Shown: positions 44,353 through 63,359 of the stretch, in pieces
Position numbering within the stretch: position 1 is the first letter of the stretch
How the letters are laid out: each line of letters begins with the position of its first letter
NCBI GenBank assembly: GCA_040954595.2
Contig: CM082585.2
Coordinates: 2,572,902 to 2,636,901 of the forward strand
Length of the DNA stretch: 64,000 nucleotides
Source of the DNA: Balanoglossus misakiensis
Taxonomy: Eukaryota > Animalia > Hemichordata
Reading direction: 5' to 3'
The notes under the pieces: generated by a model
What the model saw: the letters and a program-made list of their open reading frames with translations, nothing else
Database searches by the model: none
What the model was told of the DNA's origin: nothing
Translations under genes and position numbers: made by a program

Positions 44353-44469
44353 CTGTACACTCTCCATTGACCAATCAATATCCCACAACACAAGTGCAAT
44401 AAAAAGAGCCTGCTGTATTCACACACTGGCCTTCACAAAGATCTGCTCTCTCCATACATTCATTGACAT
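44353..44469 (-). pseudogene. cbEGF exon type B with in-frame TGA
   Basis: 117 bp, phase 1-1; DVNECMERADLCEGQCVNTAGSFYCTCVVGY*LVNGECT. Confidence 0.85.
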
Positions 44470-44860
44470 CTGAAATCAAAGATAGTTTATTATTTTTAAT
44501 TTTATTATTATTTATTTCCTGACAAACATAATACACATACATCTCAGCGCATTTTCTACAGAAAATAATAAAATTAGAAAACAAGTGAAAGCTTAAAGGA
44601 TAATAAATTACACTTAAAAACACGAAACAAACCAAAGAGTTCTGAAAGACAGTCCCTATTAACCAAAAAAGCAATGGAATGAAATAGAAAGTACTGAATA
44701 AAAAGACGAGTCTTTAAACCCCTTTGAAAACTGTCAATAGATCCAGCATTGCAGATAGAAGGTGCACAAACACTGAATCCTCTTTAGCCATATGCCTTGT
44801 TAAGTTTTGAAATGATCATTCATGGTGATGAGTTATCAAGAATATACCCATTAAAAATTA

Positions 44861-49530: not shown

Positions 49531-49647
49531 CTGTACACTCTCCATTGACCAATCAATATCCCACAACACAAGTGCAATAAAAAGAGCCTGCTGTATTCAC
49601 ACACTGGCCTTCACAAAGATCTGCTCTCTCCATACATTCATTGACAT
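49531..49647 (-). pseudogene. cbEGF exon type B with in-frame TGA
   Basis: Identical to 44353-44469. Confidence 0.85.
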
Positions 49648-51486
49648 CTGAAATCAAAGATAGTTTATTATTTTTAATTTTATTATTATTTATTTCCTGA
49701 CAAACATAATACACATACATCTCAGTGCATTTTCTACAGAAAATAATAAAATTAGAAAACAAGTGAAAGCTTAAAGGATAATAAATTACACTTAAAAACA
49801 CGAAACAAACCAAAGAGTTCTGAAAGACAGTCCCTATTAACCAAAAAAGCAATGGAATGAAATAGAAAGTACTGAATAAAAAGACGAGTCATTAAACCCC
49901 TTTGAAAACTGTCAATAGATCCAGCATAGCAGATAGAAGGTGCACAAACACTGAATCCTCTTTAGCCATATGCCTTGTTAAGTTTTGAAATGATCATTCA
50001 TGGTGATGAGTTATCAAGAATATACCCATTAAAAATTAGGGTAAGCCTAATTCAACATTCACGTTTCAAGTTTCACGTTTTACGTTCCACAGCCCAAGAT
50101 TCATATTCTGATTCAGATTCGAGTCTTGTCACGTCCTTTCGCCATCTACATCCCTTACCAAACCTGCTGATCTGCAGAGAGCTGCTGCAGCTCTGATTTA
50201 GAGCTGTGTCAGCTATCCACAGCTCATCTGCAGGTCTGCAATGGTTGTTCTGAGCTGTCATTTGTTGGCAGCAGACCAAATTCTCTTTCACAGCTTTTTT
50301 AGAACATTGTGTAGACAAACGGCAGCTCTACGCAGTTAACTCACAGCTCTAAAACAGCAGGGAACAATGCCTTCTGTAAATTTCAATATGATAAGACTTT
50401 CTGCAGCTCAGACAAGTGCAAAAGCCAGTACACCGCAGCTCCCGTACTGCAAAATGAAGTGTTGGTGTATGTAATATTGCATGAAGGCCTTTATCTATAT
50501 ATTAAGTATAGTAATTCATGACTTGTAAAATGTATCTTTCCAGATAATGCATTAATTGACATAGTTGATTTTTTAAATAACTTTTACATGTTAGTTGATG
50601 AAATAATCATATCCTCTGTTGAAGTTGGAAAAATTCTGAAGTTGGAAAATTTCAGAATATATTTTTTTTCTGAATAATTAACACTTCCCCAATAAAAAGC
50701 ATTTTTTTGTAATTTTGTACTGCAATATCACTCAAAATCAAGTTCTCACTCTTTCTTTAGAGATCACGATTTTAATACAAATTTTCCACAATTTATTTAT
50801 ATTTATTCACCGCAATCTACAACCCTTGCAAGTTTTACTGGCCGAAGTACAATACTTGACTTTTGACCCTGGACGCATTACCATACGTAACCAGATTGGT
50901 CCATTCATAAAACGTCATTGAACAGTCATACTTAGTGAGTCCACAGCGTAGACACGGAAGTCAATGTCGGAAAGCCATTTCGACGCAGTTTTGACAAAAT
51001 TTGTGAAAACCTTTCGCTGTTCCGACTACTTTATGCGTCAGAGATGACGTGCGGATATCAAAACACGCAAGATCATGACAAGGGAGGTCAGTCACGTACG
51101 TTCATCGAGCGCATCGGTCGACGCGGTCATCACAATGTGGCCGCCATTCTCGATGTCAGTAAACGCAGTCGCATTCAAACACATCGCGTTTTGATATGAT
51201 CCGGACGATTGTAAGTACCAAAGGTGTTTTGAACCAACACCTACTCCTGTGGTGCATCCATTGATAGCTGTTGATTTGCCCGTACTCATTACAAGAAATC
51301 TTGATCGCCATTCAAGTACGACGATGCGTGGACGTGCATCCGCGAAAATGGTTCATTCAAAATGGCGTGGACATTGCATGTACGTTGCATAATAATACCG
51401 TTCCCGTACAGAAAGGTGCAGCAGCATGCCTCGGATATCTTTATTATTGCCGTGAAACCACTGACTATATTCTGATCACAGTGACC

Positions 51487-51819
51487 ACATAACTACGGCA
51501 AACAATGTGTTGGGGGTCAACGGTCAATCTTTATTGACAACACTAATCCGCCCCAAAGGGGAGGGAAAAGAGAAGAAAAGAAAATTTTTACAAACACACA
51601 CTGGCGGGAAGGAGGGTTTCTCGGCGACAACAGCTATGAGAAGATGCTGGTCAAGTGACACAGCCTCGTACCAGGACACAGCCTCGTACCAGGACCCAGC
51701 CTCGTACCCGCATAAAATACCAATAAACAGAGTCTATTGTACACTTTATGCTAACATAACTACGGCAAACAATGTGTTGGGGGTCAACGGTCAATCTTTA
51801 TTGACAACACTAATCCGCC
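51487..51819 (-). repeat. 3' split-repeat block B1-A2-B2
   Basis: B copies are identical 66-mers containing AATAAA (minus strand). A2 (169 bp) equals A1 (151 bp) plus one extra 18-mer. Confidence 0.95.
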
Positions 51820-51885: not shown

Positions 51886-52875
51886 CTACATTGACATGGC
51901 AACTGACATGGCTCTAACCATTTTTTGCTTAGTCTCGGATCTAAAGAAAATATACTTTTCGAATGCGTTTGACTTCCAATCCCCTTGTTGTTTGATCAGC
52001 AAGGGGGGAATTCCAATACTGAAGGCAAAGGATGCCCCACCCCTCCGAAATGAATGCCCTGAATACTGCTTTGGATCATAACCTGCTGCTTGCAGCACAA
52101 GGCTAAGTAATTGCACAAATTTGCCATGTGTGAGACACTGGAGGCCACAAGTTTTACCAGTCGTACAATACATGAAAAGGGGATCACCCGGTTTTGCTGA
52201 GCTTGTGTGGGACAACATAGCATGTAAAGCTGCTACTGGGCAGAGGGGGGAGCCGGGCACCCTGGGGATGTGTATCTGGAGGACCCGTTGGCCAAACTGA
52301 ATTGTTTTTGAGTGCCTGATGGTTAGTACAGCGCCTTCTGGGGTAAAACTCACATCTTCCTTACACAATGATTTCCCACGCACATGATGATCTGCAGATT
52401 TGTTGAGAAGGGTTGATTTTCTGGCAAATGTAACAAATGCAACAATACAAGTGCACCAAAAAGCAATGTTTATAGGAATGGACAGATCCAACTGGGCATG
52501 AATGGCCCTCAGAATATCAAGTGTGATAGGTAATTTCTGAGCTGGAGGGCAGCCCTTGGCCCTCTGAATACCGCGTTTAACCATATTTAAAAACCAGTTC
52601 TTGTCCATGGGGTTTGGAAGCCCCACCTCCTCATGCATAATACGAATAACATTTAGGTAACTAAGGATACTAGAAGGTTTAAGTGTTCTGGCTAAAAAGG
52701 CTGCATACCTGCAGATTGTTAGAGTGTCTGCTGGCACAGGTCTTAACTCAAAATAAAGGCAAAAACACAGGAATGTATCACGGTGAGTCTTATATGCTTT
52801 CTTTGTTGATTCGGCATAGGCTGACCGTTTGTAAGCCGTCATCTCTTGGTCCAGTAAGTCCATTTGGTCCTGCAA
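51886..52875 (-). CDS. Tyrosine recombinase of the Ngaro element
   Basis: 329 open codons; core-binding region AYAESTKKAY, catalytic motifs FARKS, HSKTIQF, CPV, YSGHSFRRGGAS, GDWKSNAFEKY. First ATG at 52863. Confidence 0.95.
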   Translation of the reverse strand: MQDQMDLLDQEMTAYKRSAYAESTKKAYKTHRDTFLCFCLYFELRPVPADTLTICRYAAFLARTLKPSSILSYLNVIRIMHEEVGLPNPMDKNWFLNMVKRGIQRAKGCPPAQKLPITLDILRAIHAQLDLSIPINIAFWCTCIVAFVTFARKSTLLNKSADHHVRGKSLCKEDVSFTPEGAVLTIRHSKTIQFGQRVLQIHIPRVPGSPLCPVAALHAMLSHTSSAKPGDPLFMYCTTGKTCGLQCLTHGKFVQLLSLVLQAAGYDPKQYSGHSFRRGGASFAFSIGIPPLLIKQQGDWKSNAFEKYIFFRSETKQKMVRAMSVAMSM

Positions 52876-52943
52876 AGGCCCTGTAAGAGCAATTGGTAAG
52901 AGTCATAGGTCATATTACCAGGGTACCAATCACCCACTTGAGT
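52839..52943 (-). CDS. Displaced C-terminus of Ngaro Pol
   Basis: Removing the LINE joins ...AMAGTF to TQVGDWYPGNMTYDSYQLLLQGLCRTKWTYWTKR* in frame, overlapping the YR start. Confidence 0.75.
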   Translation of the reverse strand, partial: TQVGDWYPGNMTYDSYQLLLQGLCRTKWTYWTKR

Positions 52944-53054
52944 AATAATAATAATGCATTTATTCAGTACTATTGGCCACCAGCCATATTGTACATATCA
53001 AAAAAGAGAATATCAAAATTTACAGTCGCTTGAGGGTTCGTTCCTCGTACAGTT

Positions 53055-55375
53055 TTACTCTTGATCATCATCCAGGAGTTTATGTCGCTGTTTAAAAGCA
53101 TAAAAGATATATCTGGCAAGATTTTGTACTGTGTATGGTTTGTTTGACTGAAGTAATAAAGTAAATTTCCACTCATGGGGTGTGTCATAGAAGAATTTTG
53201 GAATAAATCTCTCTCTAATACACTGATATACTGGGCATACCAATAAAAAATGGAACTCATCTTCTACAGAATCACAAGATTGAAATTCGACAAAGTCTTT
53301 GTTCGCGTGGAACCCCATGTTTTCTTCCCTGTTCAATATTTAAATTGTGTGATGATAATCTAAAACGAGACAAAGCATATCTATAGACTGTGTCTGAAAT
53401 ACATTCTAAATATTTCTCACATGAAAACTTATTTTTAAACATACAGTAAGTACTCAGTTTTGAACTACATCTTATTTCAGTTTGCCATTCCTGTATTGAA
53501 ATGTCTTGACATCTTTGTTTGAACAGAGGTAAAAAGAAATCTCCATTTACTGAGTCTTGGAAAGCCCATATCTCAGCAAAACCATAATTACAGAGTAAAT
53601 TTTTCACAAACAGCCCCCAGCATTTATAACCTTTTTCAGCCCTATTATATTGGTATTTATAACAGTCTGTAACTATTTTTGGTGAGGTTGGATTAACACA
53701 TTTGAACCAAAAACGTAATATTTGTATATAAATTTGTATGCGAATGGGATACCTTCCAAGTTCTCCCCGCACCGCTGAGTTTGTTGTATTTATACGTACA
53801 CCCAAAAGAAACTTACAAAATCTATGATGAATCTTTTCCACATCTACACAATCATTGGTCCCCCAAATTGCACTGCCATAAAGAAGGACTGGCAATATTT
53901 TACAATCAAAAACTCTGAAAGCAATGTCTGGTTGTATTCCGTCAACTTTACAGAGGCTACTTTGTACTAAGTGAAGAGCTTTCCTGGCTTGTTCTGAAAT
54001 ATATTTTTGAGCTTGAAACCAAATTCCAGAACTTGAAAATATTACACCCAGATAGTTATATTTAGAAACAACTTCTATCTTTTTCCCATTCAAAAACCAT
54101 TTTTCACATTTTTTCAAACTTCCAGCCTTAGGCCAAAAAAAAAAAGAGTTTTGTTTAGCGTCCTCGCGCGCGTCACTTTTAAACATGCGCGTCGAGGCTT
54201 TTTTTTTCGTAATTTTCGAACCCGGAAATCAACAGTTCAGTGTTTTCTCCAGGACGCGCGATCGCGCGATTCCCCCTATTTTACACTTGAAGCGCCCCTT
54301 GTAACAAGTTCAGGGGGCGACAATCGCCCCTTCGTGAACAGCCCACCCGGCCAGTACATGCGCGTCCAAGCCTCAATAGCAGGCACCGTCAGTCAAAACA
54401 CTGGGAAAACGGCCGATATTACTGCGTGCTGGCCTATACATTTTAACTTCCCACCCCCCAAAACTATGTAGTAGATGACTTTCACATTCATTCACTTTTA
54501 ATTTAGCTCCAGGGCTGTAGTGTGCAATTGTTGGAACAGCCTATCTGGATACCGTCTAAATTTAGAGCACACACTCTGCACTCAAGTGAACTTGTTGTTA
54601 TGGCGACTTTTGAAATTGGGTTGGCAAAACGTAACAATTTTATGCAAATTAAAGAAACTGCGTTCCTGCCATGGCGATTATCAAGAATGTATCAGTTTTC
54701 CATGACCTTGTTTTCTTACTTAGGAAGGAAAGTCATTCAATATGTACAGAGACTGTTTATTTGAGTAGTGTGCCTAGCCACAGATGGGGAAGTGTAGGCA
54801 GAAATCTGAAGAAATATATACCACTTCAATTTATTTAACTATTAATGGTTTCACAATCTAATATTTTGGCAGCTATAAAACTGAAACTTTTAAAATCAAA
54901 CAAGAATTTTTTTCTCAGGTATAGTATTAAAGAAAGACACTATTGTTTTTGCAGTTGCATTTTTTTTTATTCATTTCACTCTACTTGCCAGGGGAGCAGT
55001 TAATCAGTCACTCTCCTACCACTTGTGTAATTAATTTCAGGAGAGTTATTTTCAGCTCTCCAGCATTTTTTAAATTACATGCCCTGAAAGTTATGCAAGC
55101 TGGTGTCTTCCTCTGCAAAATCTACTAATTTAAAGTAGAAAAAACTGTAACTGTTAATATGTTGTCAAGTTCACATGTAAAGTGTTGTAATTTACTTATG
55201 CTTTTTTTAATATGGAATGAAGGCAGTTAGTAAGTTAACCTTCAAAATTGTCATTCCTTGATGTTTACCTAATTAACATAAATTATGCAAATCATGATTC
55301 CCCCCTACTTTGACCAAATCCCCCCCCCCTTAATTTTGGACTATTAAAGAAATATTTGCTGTTCTTGTTTCGCAG

Positions 55376-55406
<31 letters not shown>

Positions 55407-57823
55407 AGCCGCGTCACCGCATCAATTTTGAGATTTCGCTTGGACGCTAAACAAAACTCTTTTTTTTTTTGGCCTTACGGAAAACAATAATTTTTGTTTT
55501 GTTAAGATTAACAGTGAGTCTCCACATTTTACAATAGTCTGCCAGTCTGTTCAGCAAACGCTGTAGACCAATGGGAGTGCTGCTAAATAAAGCAAGATCA
55601 TCAGCATAGAGTAAATACAACAATTTTACTGTGTTGGCATAGACAACAGTTTCTCTACCTTGTGTAAGAGCGTCTTCAATATCATTAATGTAGAAGCAAA
55701 ACAAAAGGGGGGAAATAACAGAACCTTGTTGGACTCCTATATTAATATCAAAAAAATTAGTCACCCCATGCAGAGTTTTAACTGCTGCTTTAACATGCGA
55801 GTACATAGCGTATAAAGAAGACAAAAGTTTACCCCTCATGCCTGTCATGGCTAGTTTATAGAAAAGTGAATAATGATGAACCCTATCGAATGCTTTTTCA
55901 TAGTCTATAAAGGCACAATATAGGCGACTCTTTAAGTGGAAGACATACTTTTCAATAAGTGTACGTAAAATAAAAATGTTATCCAAAGTGTTTCTTTTCT
56001 TTCTGAATCCACTCTGAGGTTCCACAATTTCATTGAACTCATCAAACCAATGTACAAGTCTGTCTGTTAAAATAAATGTATAAATTTTACTTACAACGTT
56101 AAGAAGCATAATGCTACGGTAATTTTCTGGGGTGTCTCTGTTTCCCTTCTTATGTATAGGGCTAATCAATCCCATTGCCCACTGTTGGGGGAAAATCCCT
56201 TTATCAAAAACTTCATTGAAAAGTGTGAACAGCATATCAAAAATCCCTTCAGGTGCATGTTTCCAAAATTCTGCTTGTATGCCATCATACCCAGGAGCTT
56301 TATTATTTTTTAATTTTGCTATACTACTTTTAATTTCGGCCATGGAAATAGCCTGGTTTAAGGCTGAACAGTCAACATCCGAACTGCTTACATCATTACA
56401 GTTTAAGTCATTCACATAATTTTGAATAGAAGAGTAAAAGTCTTTCATATCCTCTGTTTCAACCATTTTTGGATTAAAAAGGTCTTTGAAGTAATCAAAC
56501 CAGCTCTCCTCAGAGATGTTTGTTGACATATATGTAGGGCTCTTACGGACCTTTTGCCAAAACAACCTAGAATTTGCCTGAGAGGAAAGAAAAACAAGTT
56601 CCTCCCGCTGTTGTTTCTTGTAAATTTGTTTCTTTTCATTAATTAATTTTCTATAAACTGATTTCAAATGCATATAATTTTCTAAGCTATTTTTGGTTCT
56701 ACAGTGTCTGAAATGGTTGAGAGAGCAATATACTTCTTTCTTCAATGTTAAACACTCTTTATCAAACCAAGGATTCTCTCTTTTTAAATTTGTGTTGTTG
56801 AAAGTATTTACCTTCACTTTCATAAAGTTACAACATGAATGTATAATACCAGTTAAACAAACAGCAGCTGCATCCAACTCACCCTGGGCAATATTGTCAT
56901 AAAAAGTGTTACATAATTGACCTGTTGATTCTGTCTGGAAATTACAGTGAAACATTTCTTTTTGCTCATGAGACCATCTCAAACGGGTTTGGGGTACACA
57001 TGTACGTATAGTATTCTGCAGGAGTTGTGGATTTCCAGCTCCTTTACAAGTAAATTCCAAAGGCATATGGTCAGATTCTATACGTTGCCCAACCTTAAAA
57101 TGCTTAATTTTTGGGAAAACACTTCCCGCTGTCAAAACATAGTCATTAACACATGTGCCTTTTTTTGAAATATAAGTATACATTCCAACCCCATGGTCTT
57201 GACCAAGTCTACCATTTACAATATACAATTGTGTAGATGAACAGAAATTTAGCAGTTGCCGACCATAGTTATTTATCCCTTCGTCCATGGAACACCTTTC
57301 AGGTAAATCATACGAATCGCTACAATGTTCATCTAATGGTAGATAAATATCATTTACATCTACTTTTCCTGAAAAGTTTCCCGTCATACCATTAAAGTCT
57401 CCTGCAAGAATCATATCACAGTTATATTTAGCGGTGTATTTGATTACATCATTTTCTAGGATATCCAAAAAATCCTTTTCTACAAAGTTTGAACCCTCAG
57501 GGGTGAGTGTTTCTTGTAATCACAGACCAACACATATTTTGTGATTGACTCTTAGCAAGAAACTTTACATCCAGATTACAACTGTTATTTTCACGGAAAA
57601 ATACTGAGATCCCACCAGATGCTCTTCCATACTTCTGTTTTCTCTGTCCTGCAACGTGAACACTTTTAAAACCTTCTAGGAAAACATCACTTCCTTTTTG
57701 AAGCCAAGTCTCAGTAAGACATATAAATTCAAAGGAGCGAATATATTCACGAAAATCACTCTTGTCAATCTTATCACGCAACCCATTTACATTCCAGATT
57801 AAAAATGACAGTTCTTGTTCCAT
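53055..57823 (-). pseudogene. LINE ORF2 (apurinic-like endonuclease + reverse transcriptase + Cys/His motif), disrupted
   Basis: WNVNG, LTETW, GDFN, SDH; KAPGYDG, AFIDYEKAFD, GVQQG, YADD, YLG. Frameshifting deletion at ~57500, transposon at 54131-55474, frameshift at ~53285. Confidence 0.92.
54131..55474. mobile_element. Non-autonomous DNA transposon, PIF/Harbinger-like (Academ not excluded)
   Basis: Perfect 33 bp TIR GGCC(A)11GAGTTTTGTTTAGCGTCC; TTA TSD; removal restores IIVFRKAGSLKKCEKW in ORF2. Confidence 0.88.
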
Positions 57824-57889
57824 CTGGCCTGCATTTTGTACAGGAACATAAACAGTGTCTTTTAGGTTTGTCCGACCTTGGCCTGTTTC

Positions 57890-58720
57890 CTAGTCTATAC
57901 CAGTAGGTGCTACACCTCTCTTTCTGTATGCTGGCTGTATGTTCTCAACCTCTTCATCGTATTTGTAGACCACGTCATCGATCTTGATTTTGTCATAGAC
58001 AAACTTCACAGTCTTACCAGCTGCCCTTGCTTCCTGCGCGAATCTTCTAAGCTTTCGGCGGGTTTCCCGGACTTTCAATGTAAAATCCTCACCAATGCGA
58101 TAGTCAGTTCCCTTCAGTTTAACGGCAGCCCGCATAACTGTCTCTCGTTGTTTATAACGGAGGAACTTTGCAATTATCGGCTTTGGGTGGCTGCGTGCAT
58201 AACTTAACCGATGAACACGCTCAAACTCCAAGTCCTCGGGGATGCCCAGTTTGTCTTTGATAAATGTCTTCAGTATCTCCTCCATATCATTCCAATTCTC
58301 TTTGCCATCTTCCTCAACTCCAAAAATTACAAGATTGTTACGCTTCATCTGTGCCTGCATCTTGTCACCGTCCGACTCTAACCTGTCAGCACGGGCACGC
58401 AGCTCTTTGTTTTCCTCCACAAGCTTACTGACCGTTTCTCGATTTTCATGCATCCAGTTTTGTACATCTTTCATTTCACCTGCTAGTTCCTTCACTTGCT
58501 TGTCAACTGCCTTTATTTGGCCGGTTATGTCCTTCCGCAGGTTACGTATTTCACTCATGACATCAGTTAGTGTAACTTTTCCACCACCGTCAGTCGCCCC
58601 AATATGGCTCCCATTACGTTCACTCGACGTCGAATCTTCCTCGTCACCAGAGTTATCAGCAGATGGTGGAATGACCTGTGCAAAGTGTTTAATGGTACGG
58701 CGTTTTTCATCGAAAAGCAT
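57890..58720 (-). CDS. LINE ORF1 (coiled coil + L1-type RRM/CTD) with a chimeric N-terminus
   Basis: Heptad region, then KRNNLVIFGVEE..FERVHRL..PKPIIAKF..IGEDFT. The first ~20 codons derive from inverted Ngaro pol. Confidence 0.85.
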   Translation of the reverse strand: MLFDEKRRTIKHFAQVIPPSADNSGDEEDSTSSERNGSHIGATDGGGKVTLTDVMSEIRNLRKDITGQIKAVDKQVKELAGEMKDVQNWMHENRETVSKLVEENKELRARADRLESDGDKMQAQMKRNNLVIFGVEEDGKENWNDMEEILKTFIKDKLGIPEDLEFERVHRLSYARSHPKPIIAKFLRYKQRETVMRAAVKLKGTDYRIGEDFTLKVRETRRKLRRFAQEARAAGKTVKFVYDKIKIDDVVYKYDEEVENIQPAYRKRGVAPTGID

Positions 58721-58818
58721 CCGTTGCCCATGCAGGAATTTTACTCCTACTTCGAATCTTCCTCGTCACCAGAGTTATCAGCAGATGGTGGAATGACCTG
58801 TGCAAAGTGTTTAATGGT
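58630..58818. repeat. Complex LINE 5' junction: 83 bp inverted copy of Ngaro pol plus a 67 bp direct repeat
   Basis: 58660-58742 is the reverse complement of 59236-59318 (one mismatch); 58630-58696 equals 58752-58818. Confidence 0.95.
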
Positions 58819-60370
58819 TAAAAGTACCTGCCATTGCATTGGATTTAAAAAATGCCATTGCTTTGAAATAATGCTTTATCTCATGAAGTCTTGACAAAGG
58901 GTCAGCCAGATTCTGACCTGATGGTATATAAAGAGCGGTTATATAAAAATTTGAGGTTGCCGACAGCCAAAATAAAGTACGTAACCATGTCATAGCCAAC
59001 TTATTATGGCTAGTGCCAGAATTGATCATGTACATAGTGGCCATATTGTCTGTATACACGATCACATGTTTGTTTTTCCAAAATGGATGCCAGCGCTTGC
59101 AAGCAATGATGACAGCAAAGAGTTCCTTTAATGTGATATGACAGTCTGCAAGTTCCGGAAAATCTGCCTGCCAATTGGTGTAAAACCAGTCTTTTCCAAA
59201 GTAACCACCGCCGCTTGTAACACACGCATCAGTAGAAAATTCCTGCATGGGCAACGGATACTTTTCGATGAAAAACGCCGTACCATTAAACACTTTGCAC
59301 AGGTCATTCCACCATCTGATGTCCGCTTTCGCCTGTTGGTTGAGCCGCACATGGTGGTGCTGTTGACGCACCGTGGCCATCAAGTCAATCAAACTGCGTA
59401 AAAATGTACGCCCGCCGCGTACAACTTTGGCCGCCCAATTAAGTTTGCCAATAAGTTGCTGCAATTCACGCTTAGTTGCACGCTTCTTTCCATCCCACAT
59501 GGAAAGACATAGCTTCAGGTCTGCAAGTTTTTTGTCATCTAACGCGAGGGTTTGTTTGGCGCTGTCTATCTGAATTCCTAAGAATGTTAAACGTTGTGTG
59601 GGAGCCACAACCTTCTGCTGATTCACTGCAAAACCCAGTTCCCGCAATAGCTGCAGTAGTGTCTGGAAAGCCTGTTCACACACAGCTTCACAATCTGCTA
59701 TGATCAGGAAGTCATCTAAGTACACAATAGTTGCTTTGTAGCCTCGTCTGTGCATCATACGAACCACACTCTGGGCAATTCTATTGAATATTTCCGGACT
59801 TTTTGCTGCTCCAAACGGCAGTCTGGTGTCGACCATGTATGTCCAAGTTTCATCGCCTGCAAACTGATACTTCAACCCTGTAGCCCTTTGAGAGTCTTTG
59901 CTGTTTGGTACATGTCTGTAAGCCGATTTCAAGTCAATTTTTGCCATGTATGAATTCTTTTTGCACAGTTTGACTGCCGAGTCGATTGATTCATATTTGA
60001 AGGACTCTGTTGTGGCCTTTGAGTTCAAGCCTTTGCCAATTGGCCTGCTGCAATCATGAATGAGTCTGATTTTGCCTGGTTCTGATTTTTCGATGGCGCC
60101 AAGACTACTGATCAACATCGGCTTGCGAGGTGTGACAACATAGTTGCCTTTTGTGATTTCCTCACGCAACTGTCTTTCTACTGCACTCCTGAGTTTACTT
60201 GAAGTGGCGGACTGATAGTTAGTCTGATCGATTGGTGTCAGGGGGCTACCTGGGTCAATAATATCAAACCCATAGTGCAATCCATGTAAAATAAAGTCTC
60301 TATCCGAATCTGCAGAAAGTTCCCGCTCCCACACATCATAACATGTAGTCAGTGGGCTAGAGTCCTCATC
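58811..60370 (-). CDS. Ngaro Pol (reverse transcriptase + RNase H), in frame with gag
   Basis: KIRLIHDCS, KIDLKSAYRH, RLPFG, YLDDF, FLGI; RNase H TDAC, ELFA, YTDN, NLADPLSR. The frame is open from the codon right after the gag TAG. The present stop at 58811 lies in junction sequence. Confidence 0.95.
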   Translation of the reverse strand, partial: DEDSSPLTTCYDVWERELSADSDRDFILHGLHYGFDIIDPGSPLTPIDQTNYQSATSSKLRSAVERQLREEITKGNYVVTPRKPMLISSLGAIEKSEPGKIRLIHDCSRPIGKGLNSKATTESFKYESIDSAVKLCKKNSYMAKIDLKSAYRHVPNSKDSQRATGLKYQFAGDETWTYMVDTRLPFGAAKSPEIFNRIAQSVVRMMHRRGYKATIVYLDDFLIIADCEAVCEQAFQTLLQLLRELGFAVNQQKVVAPTQRLTFLGIQIDSAKQTLALDDKKLADLKLCLSMWDGKKRATKRELQQLIGKLNWAAKVVRGGRTFLRSLIDLMATVRQQHHHVRLNQQAKADIRWWNDLCKVFNGTAFFIEKYPLPMQEFSTDACVTSGGGYFGKDWFYTNWQADFPELADCHITLKELFAVIIACKRWHPFWKNKHVIVYTDNMATMYMINSGTSHNKLAMTWLRTLFWLSATSNFYITALYIPSGQNLADPLSRLHEIKHYFKAMAFFKSNAMAGTFNH

Positions 60371-61369
60371 CTATGGTTGTGTAGAATTCAAGTGTGGGTC
60401 GCCATGTTGGAACTGTGGGTGGTCTTTGCCACATCCTTTTTCAATGCAAATGTGTGCGAACCGACACGAGGTTCGTTGGCAACCTGCTGCCTTTTGGTAG
60501 TCGTAGCATATTTCTTTGCCGCTGCGATCCTGTTGGCGTGGTCTCTGTTGTTGGCGTTTACCTGTCTGTAAGGGTGGCTGACGTCTATCCAAGTAATACA
60601 GGGAAAGGTGCAAATCCACTCCACCCCACTTGGATTTTGTTGATGCCTGCTTCTTACGATATTCATTATCGTATGTCATCACTGAGGGCACCGTAAAGGT
60701 CTGGGCATAGTCCCCGATGTTAATGGTGTGGTTCAGGTAACCCATGATTTCCTCGCTTGACATATCACCTGCTTCGATTCCCTTTTTCATGATACGTGCG
60801 TTTGCCGAGACCCACTGGGCGAGGGATATTTGTTCTGGCTTGGGGCGTGATTTCGTGGTGCGCACCACAAGTTTGGTATTTCCATCACTCACTAGTTCTG
60901 TTTCATCGCATGGTTCAATAACGCCTTTGCCATATGTGATGAAGTCGGGGATAAGAAGCGGCTTTCTCTCACCTTTAGCGTGTTCAGGGTGCGCGGGACT
61001 TGTTTTGGCGCCACTTTCCAACACATCTTTCAGTGCGTCGTTCCCTAAAGACTCCATCAATTCGTTGAGGATTTTGTCTTTGGCAAGGGACTTGGTCGTC
61101 ACCGGCGATGTCACCTCCTCCTTCCCGCCGCCGTTTGGTTCTTGTCGTTTTACTCCGGTCGGGTTATCGGACATATCTCGTATTACCCGTCTTAGTAGAC
61201 TCCGTTGGCCAAGGGGCAGTTCGAGGTCAACAATGTCCTGTTCTTGTATGGTTTTCAAGATTTCCGTCGAGGTGATTTGTTCTGTAGTCAACTTGTCGAT
61301 CGTGTCCTTTGACAGATGTTTCGTTTCACACCACTCAACAAACCAGTAATTATGACCGCTTTCTACCAT
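60371..61369 (-). CDS. Ngaro Gag-like ORF1 with SAM-like N-terminus and C-terminal Cys/His finger
   Basis: ATG in ACCATGG context just after repeat A1; FVEWCETKHLSKDTIDKLTTEQITSTEILKTIQEQDIVDLELPLGQRSLLRRVI; YDNEYR; CYDYQKAAGCQRTSCRFAHICIEKGCGKDH. Confidence 0.9.
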   Translation of the reverse strand: MVESGHNYWFVEWCETKHLSKDTIDKLTTEQITSTEILKTIQEQDIVDLELPLGQRSLLRRVIRDMSDNPTGVKRQEPNGGGKEEVTSPVTTKSLAKDKILNELMESLGNDALKDVLESGAKTSPAHPEHAKGERKPLLIPDFITYGKGVIEPCDETELVSDGNTKLVVRTTKSRPKPEQISLAQWVSANARIMKKGIEAGDMSSEEIMGYLNHTINIGDYAQTFTVPSVMTYDNEYRKKQASTKSKWGGVDLHLSLYYLDRRQPPLQTGKRQQQRPRQQDRSGKEICYDYQKAAGCQRTSCRFAHICIEKGCGKDHPQFQHGDPHLNSTQP

Positions 61370-61372
61370 GGT

Positions 61373-61523
61373 AAAGAAAATTTTTACAAACACACACTGG
61401 CGGGAAGGAGGGTTTCTCGGCGACAACAGCTATGAGAAGATGCTGGTCAAGTGACACAGCCTCGTACCAGGACCCAGCCTCGTACCCGCATAAAATACCA
61501 ATAAACAGAGTCTATTGTACACT
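61373..61523 (-). repeat. 5' terminal repeat A1 of the Ngaro element
   Basis: Matches 51577-51745 apart from an 18 bp indel. Confidence 0.95.
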
Positions 61524-62718
61524 CCATCGAACTTTAGATTACAAGTGTTTGTACATGGCTAGTGGAACTATACTCTATGTAGCTCTATCATTTTATCCTG
61601 GTAAGGGATTACTTTCACTTGATTCAGAATATAGGAATTAGTCCTTTGCTTAAGTTATTGGTTGTAAAATATACCTAAACCTATCAATTATATCAGAATT
61701 ACGCTTAAAAGTATCTGTGAATACCAAGATTGCCAGCCATGGTGCGATCTCAGGCCTAGGGTCATTCATGTGTTAGAAAATAATAAATAGGGTGCATCTC
61801 TCTTTGAAAAATGTTGTTGAAACTGAACTTGAAGAGATACCCAACAATAACGTCACGCGATAATCGAACAGAATATTTGGGGAACCTTGCTTGGGCAGGG
61901 ATCGAGGACAATAAACAATCGTACGCACCCCTGTTTACGGCAGCATAAACATATTAGACAAGACTGGAATCTGAATCAGAATATGAATCTTGGGCTGTGG
62001 AACGTGAAACGTGAATCTTGAAACGTGAATCTTGAATTAGGCTTACCCTAAAAATTACTGTACCCCTCGGAGAAGCATTTATAATGTCTTTAAAATGAGA
62101 TGAAAACTATATGAATTTTCTAAGTGTATATTTATTCTTTGCTGTGGTAATTTATTTAGCTATAGGTCGATAAATTATGTTAATTTGATTGAGTTATGCA
62201 TATAAGTAGTGAAAATACATTGTACTTGTGCATAAATATATCAGACAGTCTTATAGTATAGTGTGAGGTTGATCACACATATACTTAACCACATATTTCT
62301 TGATCAATTAATTGTTTTTACGTCAAAGTCCTCAATATCCATGGCAATCTCAGAATCTAGGAATTTTAACACTCTCTATCATTCTCATTTTAACAAAATC
62401 CCCTGAAACTCGTGTACCCTGTCAGCAAAACTTTGTCTGATTTTTAAAAAAACAGATTACTTTTTCACCCTTGCAAACAAATTTTCAAAGATAAGTTTTC
62501 ACATTTGTTAATTTGTTTATATTATGCATGATTATAATTGGAAAAATTCTGAGATACAATTTCAACAAACATGTGTTCAGTACAAGTGTGCGGTTGATTT
62601 CAAATTTTAAAATGTGTGCAATGGACTGACAGGATGTGTGTTTAGCTGATTGTAACCATAGCAATATACAATCCCCAAACAGTGTAGCCACAGAAGAGAT
62701 CAATATCCAGTTACATAC

Positions 62719-62837
62719 CGCCACATGCATGGCCATCCTCCAGCAGATAGAATCCTGGTCTGCAAGCGCACCGATAACTACCATGGGTATTCTGACAATA
62801 GTGTTGGCACGCATTTCCACCACTGTGACATTCATAT
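62719..62837 (-). pseudogene. cbEGF exon type A with a 4 bp frameshifting deletion
   Basis: 119 bp versus 123; corrected reading DMN.CHSGGNACQHYCQNTHGSYRCACRPGFYLLEDGHACG. Confidence 0.8.
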
Positions 62838-63359
62838 CTGGAGGGTAAGAAGAAATTAGAAATTATTTACAAGCATTACATTATTCAAGGTAAGCCTACT
62901 CTTGACTACTGGAATCTCACACCAAAGACACCTGGGCTCAGATTTATAACAAGATGGGAATAATTTGTCTCAATTGGTATCCCGTAAAATATTTTTTTCC
63001 GGATGTGTTTATACTTTAGAACCACCAGACAGGTAATATGTATCAGGCATGGTGCCTCAACAGCATCTTGGTATTCATCTGCACAGTCGTCATTTGCACC
63101 ACGTTGCTGAAATTCCCCGTCAGCTGGAAATTTGAATGCCAACGGAACTGCGTCTGATGTCATTGATATCAAAGAAAATCTTTATCTACTGGTCATCCAA
63201 TGTCCTCAGTTAAGACATCAAGCTGCCATCTTCTGATGTCATGTTAGGTAACAAATTATCCAAATACAGTTCCATTGAAATACTGAAAAGTGATAAACTG
63301 TCACTTGCCAGGCAAAAGGGATAGGTGGGTATTATAACTCAGCTCATAACATAACATAC

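Follow-up and report, generated by a model that had tools for sequence, protein, structure and literature searches.

Ngaro-like elements, which belong to the order DIRS, are retrotransposons defined, in the passages devoted to them in PMC9210276, PMC4157794 and PMC13465315, by split direct repeats, a gag gene, a reverse transcriptase (RT)/RNase H region, a tyrosine recombinase (YR) frame in last position and the lack of a methyltransferase. As published, their open reading frames (ORFs) are overlapping or frameshifted (sections of PMC13003380 and PMC3783388), and a 2015 review by Poulter and Butler, as quoted in PMC13003380, held that the Ngaro YR is probably produced by programmed frameshift in the overlap. 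Here, an element of this type is described in a stretch of 64,000 nucleotides (nt) of the hemichordate Balanoglossus misakiensis (assembly GCA_040954595.2, contig CM082585.2, positions 2,572,902 to 2,636,901), which is called the window throughout. The element has the same split repeats (A1 ... B1 A2 B2) and gene order, equally without methyltransferase, and matched splice signals are found in it. The comparison with its relatives suggests that YR is quite likely made as a fusion to the Gag N-terminal module (GagN-YR), for which a spliced subgenomic RNA would be the message.

The nearest analogue is the SD' RNA of murine leukaemia virus, in which an alternative donor inside gag leads to P50, a protein joining the Gag N-terminus to integrase sequence and packaged in virions (as told in part of PMC10496198). 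As predicted in the window, a gag-internal donor thus gives a fusion of the Gag N-terminus by splicing, but P50 holds only the last 116 amino acids (aa) of the DDE integrase and is accessory, the full integrase coming from Gag-Pol (same part of PMC10496198). In the Ngaro case, by contrast, production of the complete catalytic recombinase would rest on the splice. Genome-length and spliced RNAs also set the protein ratio for retroviral env, foamy virus pol and copia/Ty1-type gag, although there the product of the spliced RNA is Env, Pol or a short Gag, and not a fusion of a Gag domain to the integrating enzyme.

No report of a spliced GagN-YR, or of a SAM domain in a DIRS-order Gag, was found in the literature searched, outside which lie subscription papers, Repbase notes and supplements such as Additional file 9 of PMC2632668; the relevant passages of PMC7192593, PMC2632668, PMC9341512, PMC8547959, PMC3783388, PMC6681497, PMC9210276, PMC4157794, PMC13465315, PMC9940879 and PMC12477816 describe neither, and the splice plan appears to be undescribed for the Ngaro group. 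The predicted splice contradicts the standing frameshift suggestion. A conserved splice of this kind would explain YR expression and offer a mechanism by which an enzyme outside the Gag-Pol polyprotein reaches the complementary DNA. Moreover, the annotated YR proteins of the group would be about 130 or more residues longer, which matters for recombinase expression and transposition assays, and the retroelement would rely on a coding splice and yet have to preserve its genome in unspliced form.

Phase-matched splice signals conserved beyond protein constraint

The element lies on the minus strand, from 61523 to 51487, with all parts on the same strand. Its gag ORF (60371..61369, 332 aa) begins with the ATG at 61369 and ends in a TAG followed by GA, with pol in the same frame. 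The coding part of the predicted exon 1 (60973..61369, 397 nt, that is, 132 codons plus one nt) comprises a SAM-like domain, a linker and a short helical segment, and is closed by the predicted donor AAG/GTGAGA (60967..60975, cut at 60973/60972). With 8 of 9 consensus positions matched, this donor has no equal among the 49 GT dinucleotides of gag, the two further 8/9 donors of the whole element being both within an inserted long interspersed nuclear element (LINE). In the AlphaFold model it sits in a low-confidence linker, predicted to be disordered, just ahead of the Gag core. The predicted acceptor (52881..52901) is a pyrimidine tract ending with CAG at 52881, from which exon 2 (51886..52880, 995 nt including the stop codon) continues into the intact YR frame. 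The catalytic residues R153, K191, H275, R278, W301 and Y309 are present and are invariant or nearly so across 51 aligned proteins. YR is the last frame of the element, and its open frame overlaps the pol tail (52839..52943), which passes through the acceptor, by 64 nt. Both sites are in phase 1, the predicted intron of this copy measures 8,092 nt, LINE included, and the joined product amounts, by arithmetic, to 463 aa. The splice coordinates, the phases, the continuous 463-aa frame and the terminal, overlapping position of YR had all been proposed in an earlier note made from the sequence, and all of them proved correct.

Relatives were collected by means of an alignment of 51 YRs: of the 357 metagenome stretches confirmed, the best 80 were taken, and many of these are whole elements. 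Their YRs have a median identity of 39% and are spread across the whole tree; no relative was found in IMG/VR. All counts refer to sets reduced to less than 70% identity, window included. Of 33 gags, 30 were kept (L019b and L034 were at least 70% identical to another and L047 was truncated), and of 81 YR sources 58 were kept, leaving out four that could not be anchored, L032 with too little upstream DNA and 18 near-duplicates.

The donor was sought in the 30 codons upstream of the conserved xIxDF motif, with a threshold of at least 7 of 9 consensus positions. A phase-1 donor of this strength was present in 26/30 gags and in 26 of 299 other gag windows, while the same region contained a phase-0 site in two gags and a phase-2 site in none. 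The glycine of the G-[E/K] motif is coded by GGT in 20/24 cases within the donor region as against 11/79 elsewhere, and resampling of synonymous codons, over 2000 rounds, left 5.8 of the 30 gags with a donor on average and 15 at most, the observed number being 26. The donor is kept even where the residue changes, as with serine (AGT) in L015 and cysteine (TGT) in L024, and L012 carries a GC-type donor at the same aligned place. No shared donor was detected in pol, where any 30-codon window held one in at most 5/30 elements. Among the loci added later (L081-L084), both alignable gags had strong donors (9/9 and 8/9), the gag of L084 being unalignable to the donor motif.

The acceptor was taken as the best YAG lying 17 to 33 codons upstream of the YR anchor, a strong tract being one with at least 10 pyrimidines in 14. 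The best YAG was in phase 1 in 55/58 elements, tied in one and in phase 0 in two, and consisted of CAG in 47 and TAG in 11. A strong tract together with a phase-1 YAG was found in 48/58 elements and in 133 of 1549 control windows, and in the weak cases L028 and L069 a stronger phase-1 site lies farther upstream. Pol stops upstream of the acceptor in 17/51 elements, and the acceptor is kept. Where pol overlaps it, the YAG is not a pol codon in 13/34, the remaining 21, window included, reading it as an in-frame glutamine CAG; resampling of these overlapped acceptors gave a mean of 12.3 and a maximum of 22 in 1000 rounds, compared with the 31/34 observed. The three new YRs of the later loci (L081 was a duplicate of L069 and was not counted) all had phase-1 acceptors, of which one is weak and another is equalled by a phase-0 site. 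An ATG lies between the acceptor and the first YR helix in only 11/56 elements. The idea that a TAG acceptor doubles as the pol stop codon was dropped, with 0/51 cases, and no clear branch-point consensus was apparent in 57 aligned acceptors.

The earlier note had set the phase match of a single copy against a one-in-three chance, and had proposed that GT and AG should be kept, in phase, in related elements. Such a comparison has now been made and bears the proposal out, the phase-1 pair recurring beyond chance in relatives as distant as the median YR identity indicates.

Further indications come from protein models and from one shortened element. The RefSeq model XP_066298120.1 (P0015) of Branchiostoma lanceolatum, with 449 aa, starts as a Gag N-terminal module and continues into YR: its first 111 residues are matched by a profile built from 43 other gags (E 3e-27), and the join, by comparison with the B. 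belcheri Gag P0163, falls on the glycine of the donor motif. In L002 (162-2193) the coding sequence between the two exons is deleted and decayed, the Gag core and most of pol being gone; still present are exon 1, with an 8/9 phase-1 donor at 565/566, and an intact YR preceded by the acceptor. The end of this contig repeats its start. This single example is as expected if GagN-YR were a selected unit. Four more proteins, long members of YR clusters (P0373, P0394, P0396 and P0411), were considered as Gag-YR fusions and rejected as C-terminal read-throughs, upstream extension or pol-YR. Predicted proteins of 638-2000 aa yielded pol-YR models and no GagN-YR, and none of the 84 loci holds a retroposed copy of the spliced RNA, in which exon 1 would adjoin YR.

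Readings of recombinase expression

According to the favoured reading, the unspliced RNA would serve as genome and as Gag message, and Pol would be obtained by recoding at the gag stop, in the window likely by UAG readthrough. A share of the transcripts would be spliced, losing the Gag core and all of pol and giving the 463-aa GagN-YR.

Several observations weigh against this reading. Four of the 30 gags (L012, L024, L058 and L062) remain below the donor threshold, the SAM module is absent in 3/30 gags and borderline in one, and the window copy itself belongs to the 11/56 elements with an in-frame ATG, in its case right after the acceptor. The GagN-YR fusion was seen in only one of 120 listed YR homologues (of 1107 found), and YR in none of the 150 best Gag-N representatives, 43 of which have the Gag core; most of these homologues and representatives come from contigs whose predicted proteins begin at the genomic YR frame. 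At least seven predicted proteins (P0124 and P0293-P0298) fuse pol to YR. In the window copy, the AATAAA of the LINE may terminate transcripts early. Finally, the test windows were picked after viewing the alignments and the elements are related, so that Fisher P values overstate significance; for this reason the resampling and the later loci were given more weight than the P values.

The first alternative is the programmed ribosomal frameshift from the end of pol, which would yield Gag-Pol-YR. Apart from the published suggestion, it can draw on the frame of YR, which is -1 relative to pol in 28/51 elements, window included, with overlapping open frames, and on the pol-YR models just mentioned. 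However, YR is +1 in 17/51 and in frame in 6/51, the open frames do not overlap in 13/51 (some of them decayed copies), and recoding motifs are scarce at pol/YR. There they were recognised in 1/51 elements, whereas at gag/pol a motif matching the pol frame occurs in 26/30. The latter comprise CGN-TTT-CGT in all six elements with pol in the +1 frame, a slippery heptamer, mostly A-AAA-AAC, in 9/11 with pol in the -1 frame, and UAG-GA or UGA-CU in 11/13 with pol in the same frame, the window having UAG-GA (60371-60373); L001, L005, L007, L010, L012, L066, L016, L023 and L038 are among the elements whose junctions were compared. The TTT-CGT motif resembles the +1 site of influenza PA-X. Since such motifs are seen at gag/pol, these signals are detectable in the data when present. 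A frameshift at the end of pol leaves, moreover, the gag donor unexplained, and it is an improbable source of YR.

Equally improbable is the possibility that the acceptor pairs with another upstream exon (a 5' leader, a pol donor or a host exon), or that a separate transcript lets YR start at an ATG of its own; the gag donor would then have another purpose, such as limiting Gag. The ATG found after the acceptor in 11/56 elements, window included, would suit an independent start; a donor of 7/9 lies at most 90 nt ahead of the first gag ATG in 7/27 elements, and some predicted proteins join the Gag-N exon to unrelated downstream exons. Nevertheless, the other 45/56 elements have no ATG after the acceptor, and thus a coding phase-1 exon is needed, while the only conserved donor found is that of gag, in the matching phase, with none in pol. 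The weakest alternative, that the motifs are not spliced and only reflect constraint on the proteins (G-E/G-K in Gag; glutamine and hydrophobic residues at the end of Pol), has in its favour the in-frame glutamine CAG of the window and 20 other elements and the part of the signal retained on resampling, but is very improbable, since no round of resampling reached the observed counts, the acceptor is still there, and still in phase 1 to YR, where the sequence is non-coding or is read by pol in another frame, and the donor survives the replacement of glycine by serine or cysteine.

If the spliced GagN-YR is accepted, a wider scheme can tentatively be drawn for animal Ngaro elements, in which one promoter would feed three tiers: Gag from the full RNA, Pol by any of three interchangeable recoding signals at the end of gag (readthrough of the stop, a -1 slip, or a +1 slip at TTT-CGT), and YR spliced to the SAM exon. 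SAM would then act as a co-polymerising address tag, replacing the Gag-Pol route by which long terminal repeat elements package their integrase; GagN-YR might persist in pol-less satellites such as L002, and the SAM exon might be spliced into host genes.

The Gag N-terminal module

The SAM-like nature of the Gag N-terminus, already pointed out in the earlier note, is backed by structure prediction. Residues 8-69 of the window Gag (about 61163..61348) are modelled by AlphaFold as five helices, with a predicted local distance difference test score of 94-97 over residues 11-60, the same five-helix fold as that of SAM domains. Structural alignment with VIA-align gave, against SAM, a Z of 8.8 and a root-mean-square deviation of 1.7 over 61 aligned residues, and for another match a Z of 8.6 and a deviation of 1.5, again over 61; the Foldseek E-values were only 0.06-1. 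The top structural matches are nearly all SAM domains, several of them in SAM-SAM complexes, and in a search with the whole Gag fold the matches were all taken up by SAM. The module differs from SAM domains in having no match to the Pfam SAM families, none being returned at E ≤0.1 in the window or at E ≤0.05 in P0015 and P0121, and in sharing 12-23% identity with solved SAMs. A SAM-like fold of the Gag N-terminus is therefore supported at the level of the models. A weak Pfam zf-CCCH match (E 0.008, below the curated cut-off) was also noted at residues 284-306.

Across the 30 gags the SAM module is clear in 23, borderline in one, replaced in three and cut off in three. L014 and L031 retain the donor with a different module at the start of Gag. 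In L014, L031, L012, L071, L084 and P0122 the position of the SAM module is occupied by a Cys/His zinc-binding-like motif and/or a charged helical stretch. The earlier note had interpreted YR as the product of a spliced RNA sharing the SAM-like domain of Gag: the predicted splice is strongly backed by the comparison and by one RefSeq fusion model, but the part in common appears to be the N-terminal module of Gag, which is a SAM in most elements and not in all.

SAM domains often self-associate, which makes it plausible that GagN-YR co-assembles with Gag. Loading of YR into particles through the shared module is a speculative proposal, for which we would put the chances at somewhat under even; chromatin targeting, or merely the supply of a start codon, are alternative roles for the module. 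In Cafeteria, loss of ORF1 alters the target choice of Ngaro (as reported in part of PMC8547959), and the spliced fusion may offer a reading for this dependence, as part of the recombinase protein would be encoded by ORF1.

The module is also encountered in other contexts. The predicted proteins P0151, P0164, P0169, P0176, P0157 and P0188, from Saccoglossus, Branchiostoma and Actinostola, start with a Ngaro Gag N-terminal module and run on into C1q, NHL-repeat or other sequence; host genes may have captured the SAM exon, or the models may be gene-prediction artefacts.

Structure and setting of the window copy

In structure, the window element is an ordinary Ngaro member, assigned by its repeats, domain order, lack of a methyltransferase and YR residues. 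The split direct repeat A1 (61373..61523, minus strand, as are the following parts) forms the 5' end and matches 51577-51745, whereas B1 (51754..51819), A2 (51577..51745, equal to A1 plus an 18-nt internal duplication) and B2 (51487..51552, 100% identical to B1) lie at the 3' end, past YR, B2 being the end of the element. Between them, gag, RT/RNase H and YR follow in order on one strand. The 5' part of pol (58830..60370) contains RT (Pfam RVT_1, E 4.8e-22) and RNase H (RT_RNaseH, E 6e-07); in its 519 aa, Pfam recognised only RT, thumb and RNase H, and no methyltransferase domain. A PAT-like retrotransposon, which would carry a methyltransferase in pol, was rejected for the window element. The pol tail beyond the LINE adds 34 aa only, and in uninterrupted relatives the YR match mostly starts no more than about 150 nt from where the pol match ends. 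The closest YR among the matches listed, with 53% identity, is that of the hemichordate Glandiceps talaboti.

The LINE, of about 5.9 kb (approximately 52945..58830, minus strand), is contained in the predicted intron and interrupts pol near 58830; this copy is non-autonomous because pol is broken. It encodes a coiled-coil ORF1 and an endonuclease-RT ORF2 with breaks, and its tail has an AATAAA, about 80 nt upstream of the YR acceptor, and ATT repeats. At its 5' end, within 58627-58818, pol sequence from 59236-59321 recurs twice in inverted orientation (86 and 40 nt, 98%), together with a 70-nt duplication, which constitutes a complex rearrangement at the insertion site. Nested in the LINE is a non-coding element (54130..55475) with terminal inverted repeats of 34-39 nt, whose ends begin with GGCC and which is flanked by TAA on both sides; we take it to resemble a miniature inverted-repeat transposable element of PIF/Harbinger type.

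Some features of the contigs of relatives may also be mentioned. In L006, L007, L019, L033, L066, L069 and L072, gag-pol-YR is followed by gag again, or YR stands ahead of gag, as expected of circular or tandem forms or of collapsed multi-copy assemblies. The Ngaro-type elements L081-L084 were found on contigs of bacterial metagenome-assembled genomes in a prokaryote genome collection and most likely represent host contamination.

As for the surroundings of the window copy, EGF-like exons of the minus strand lie on both sides of it (44378-44470, 49556-49648 and about 62700-62860), and segmental duplications occur at spacings of 5.2 kb and 16.6 kb. Apparently, then, the element occupies an intron of a host gene that runs in the same direction, and there its splice sites could interfere with the splicing of the host transcript.

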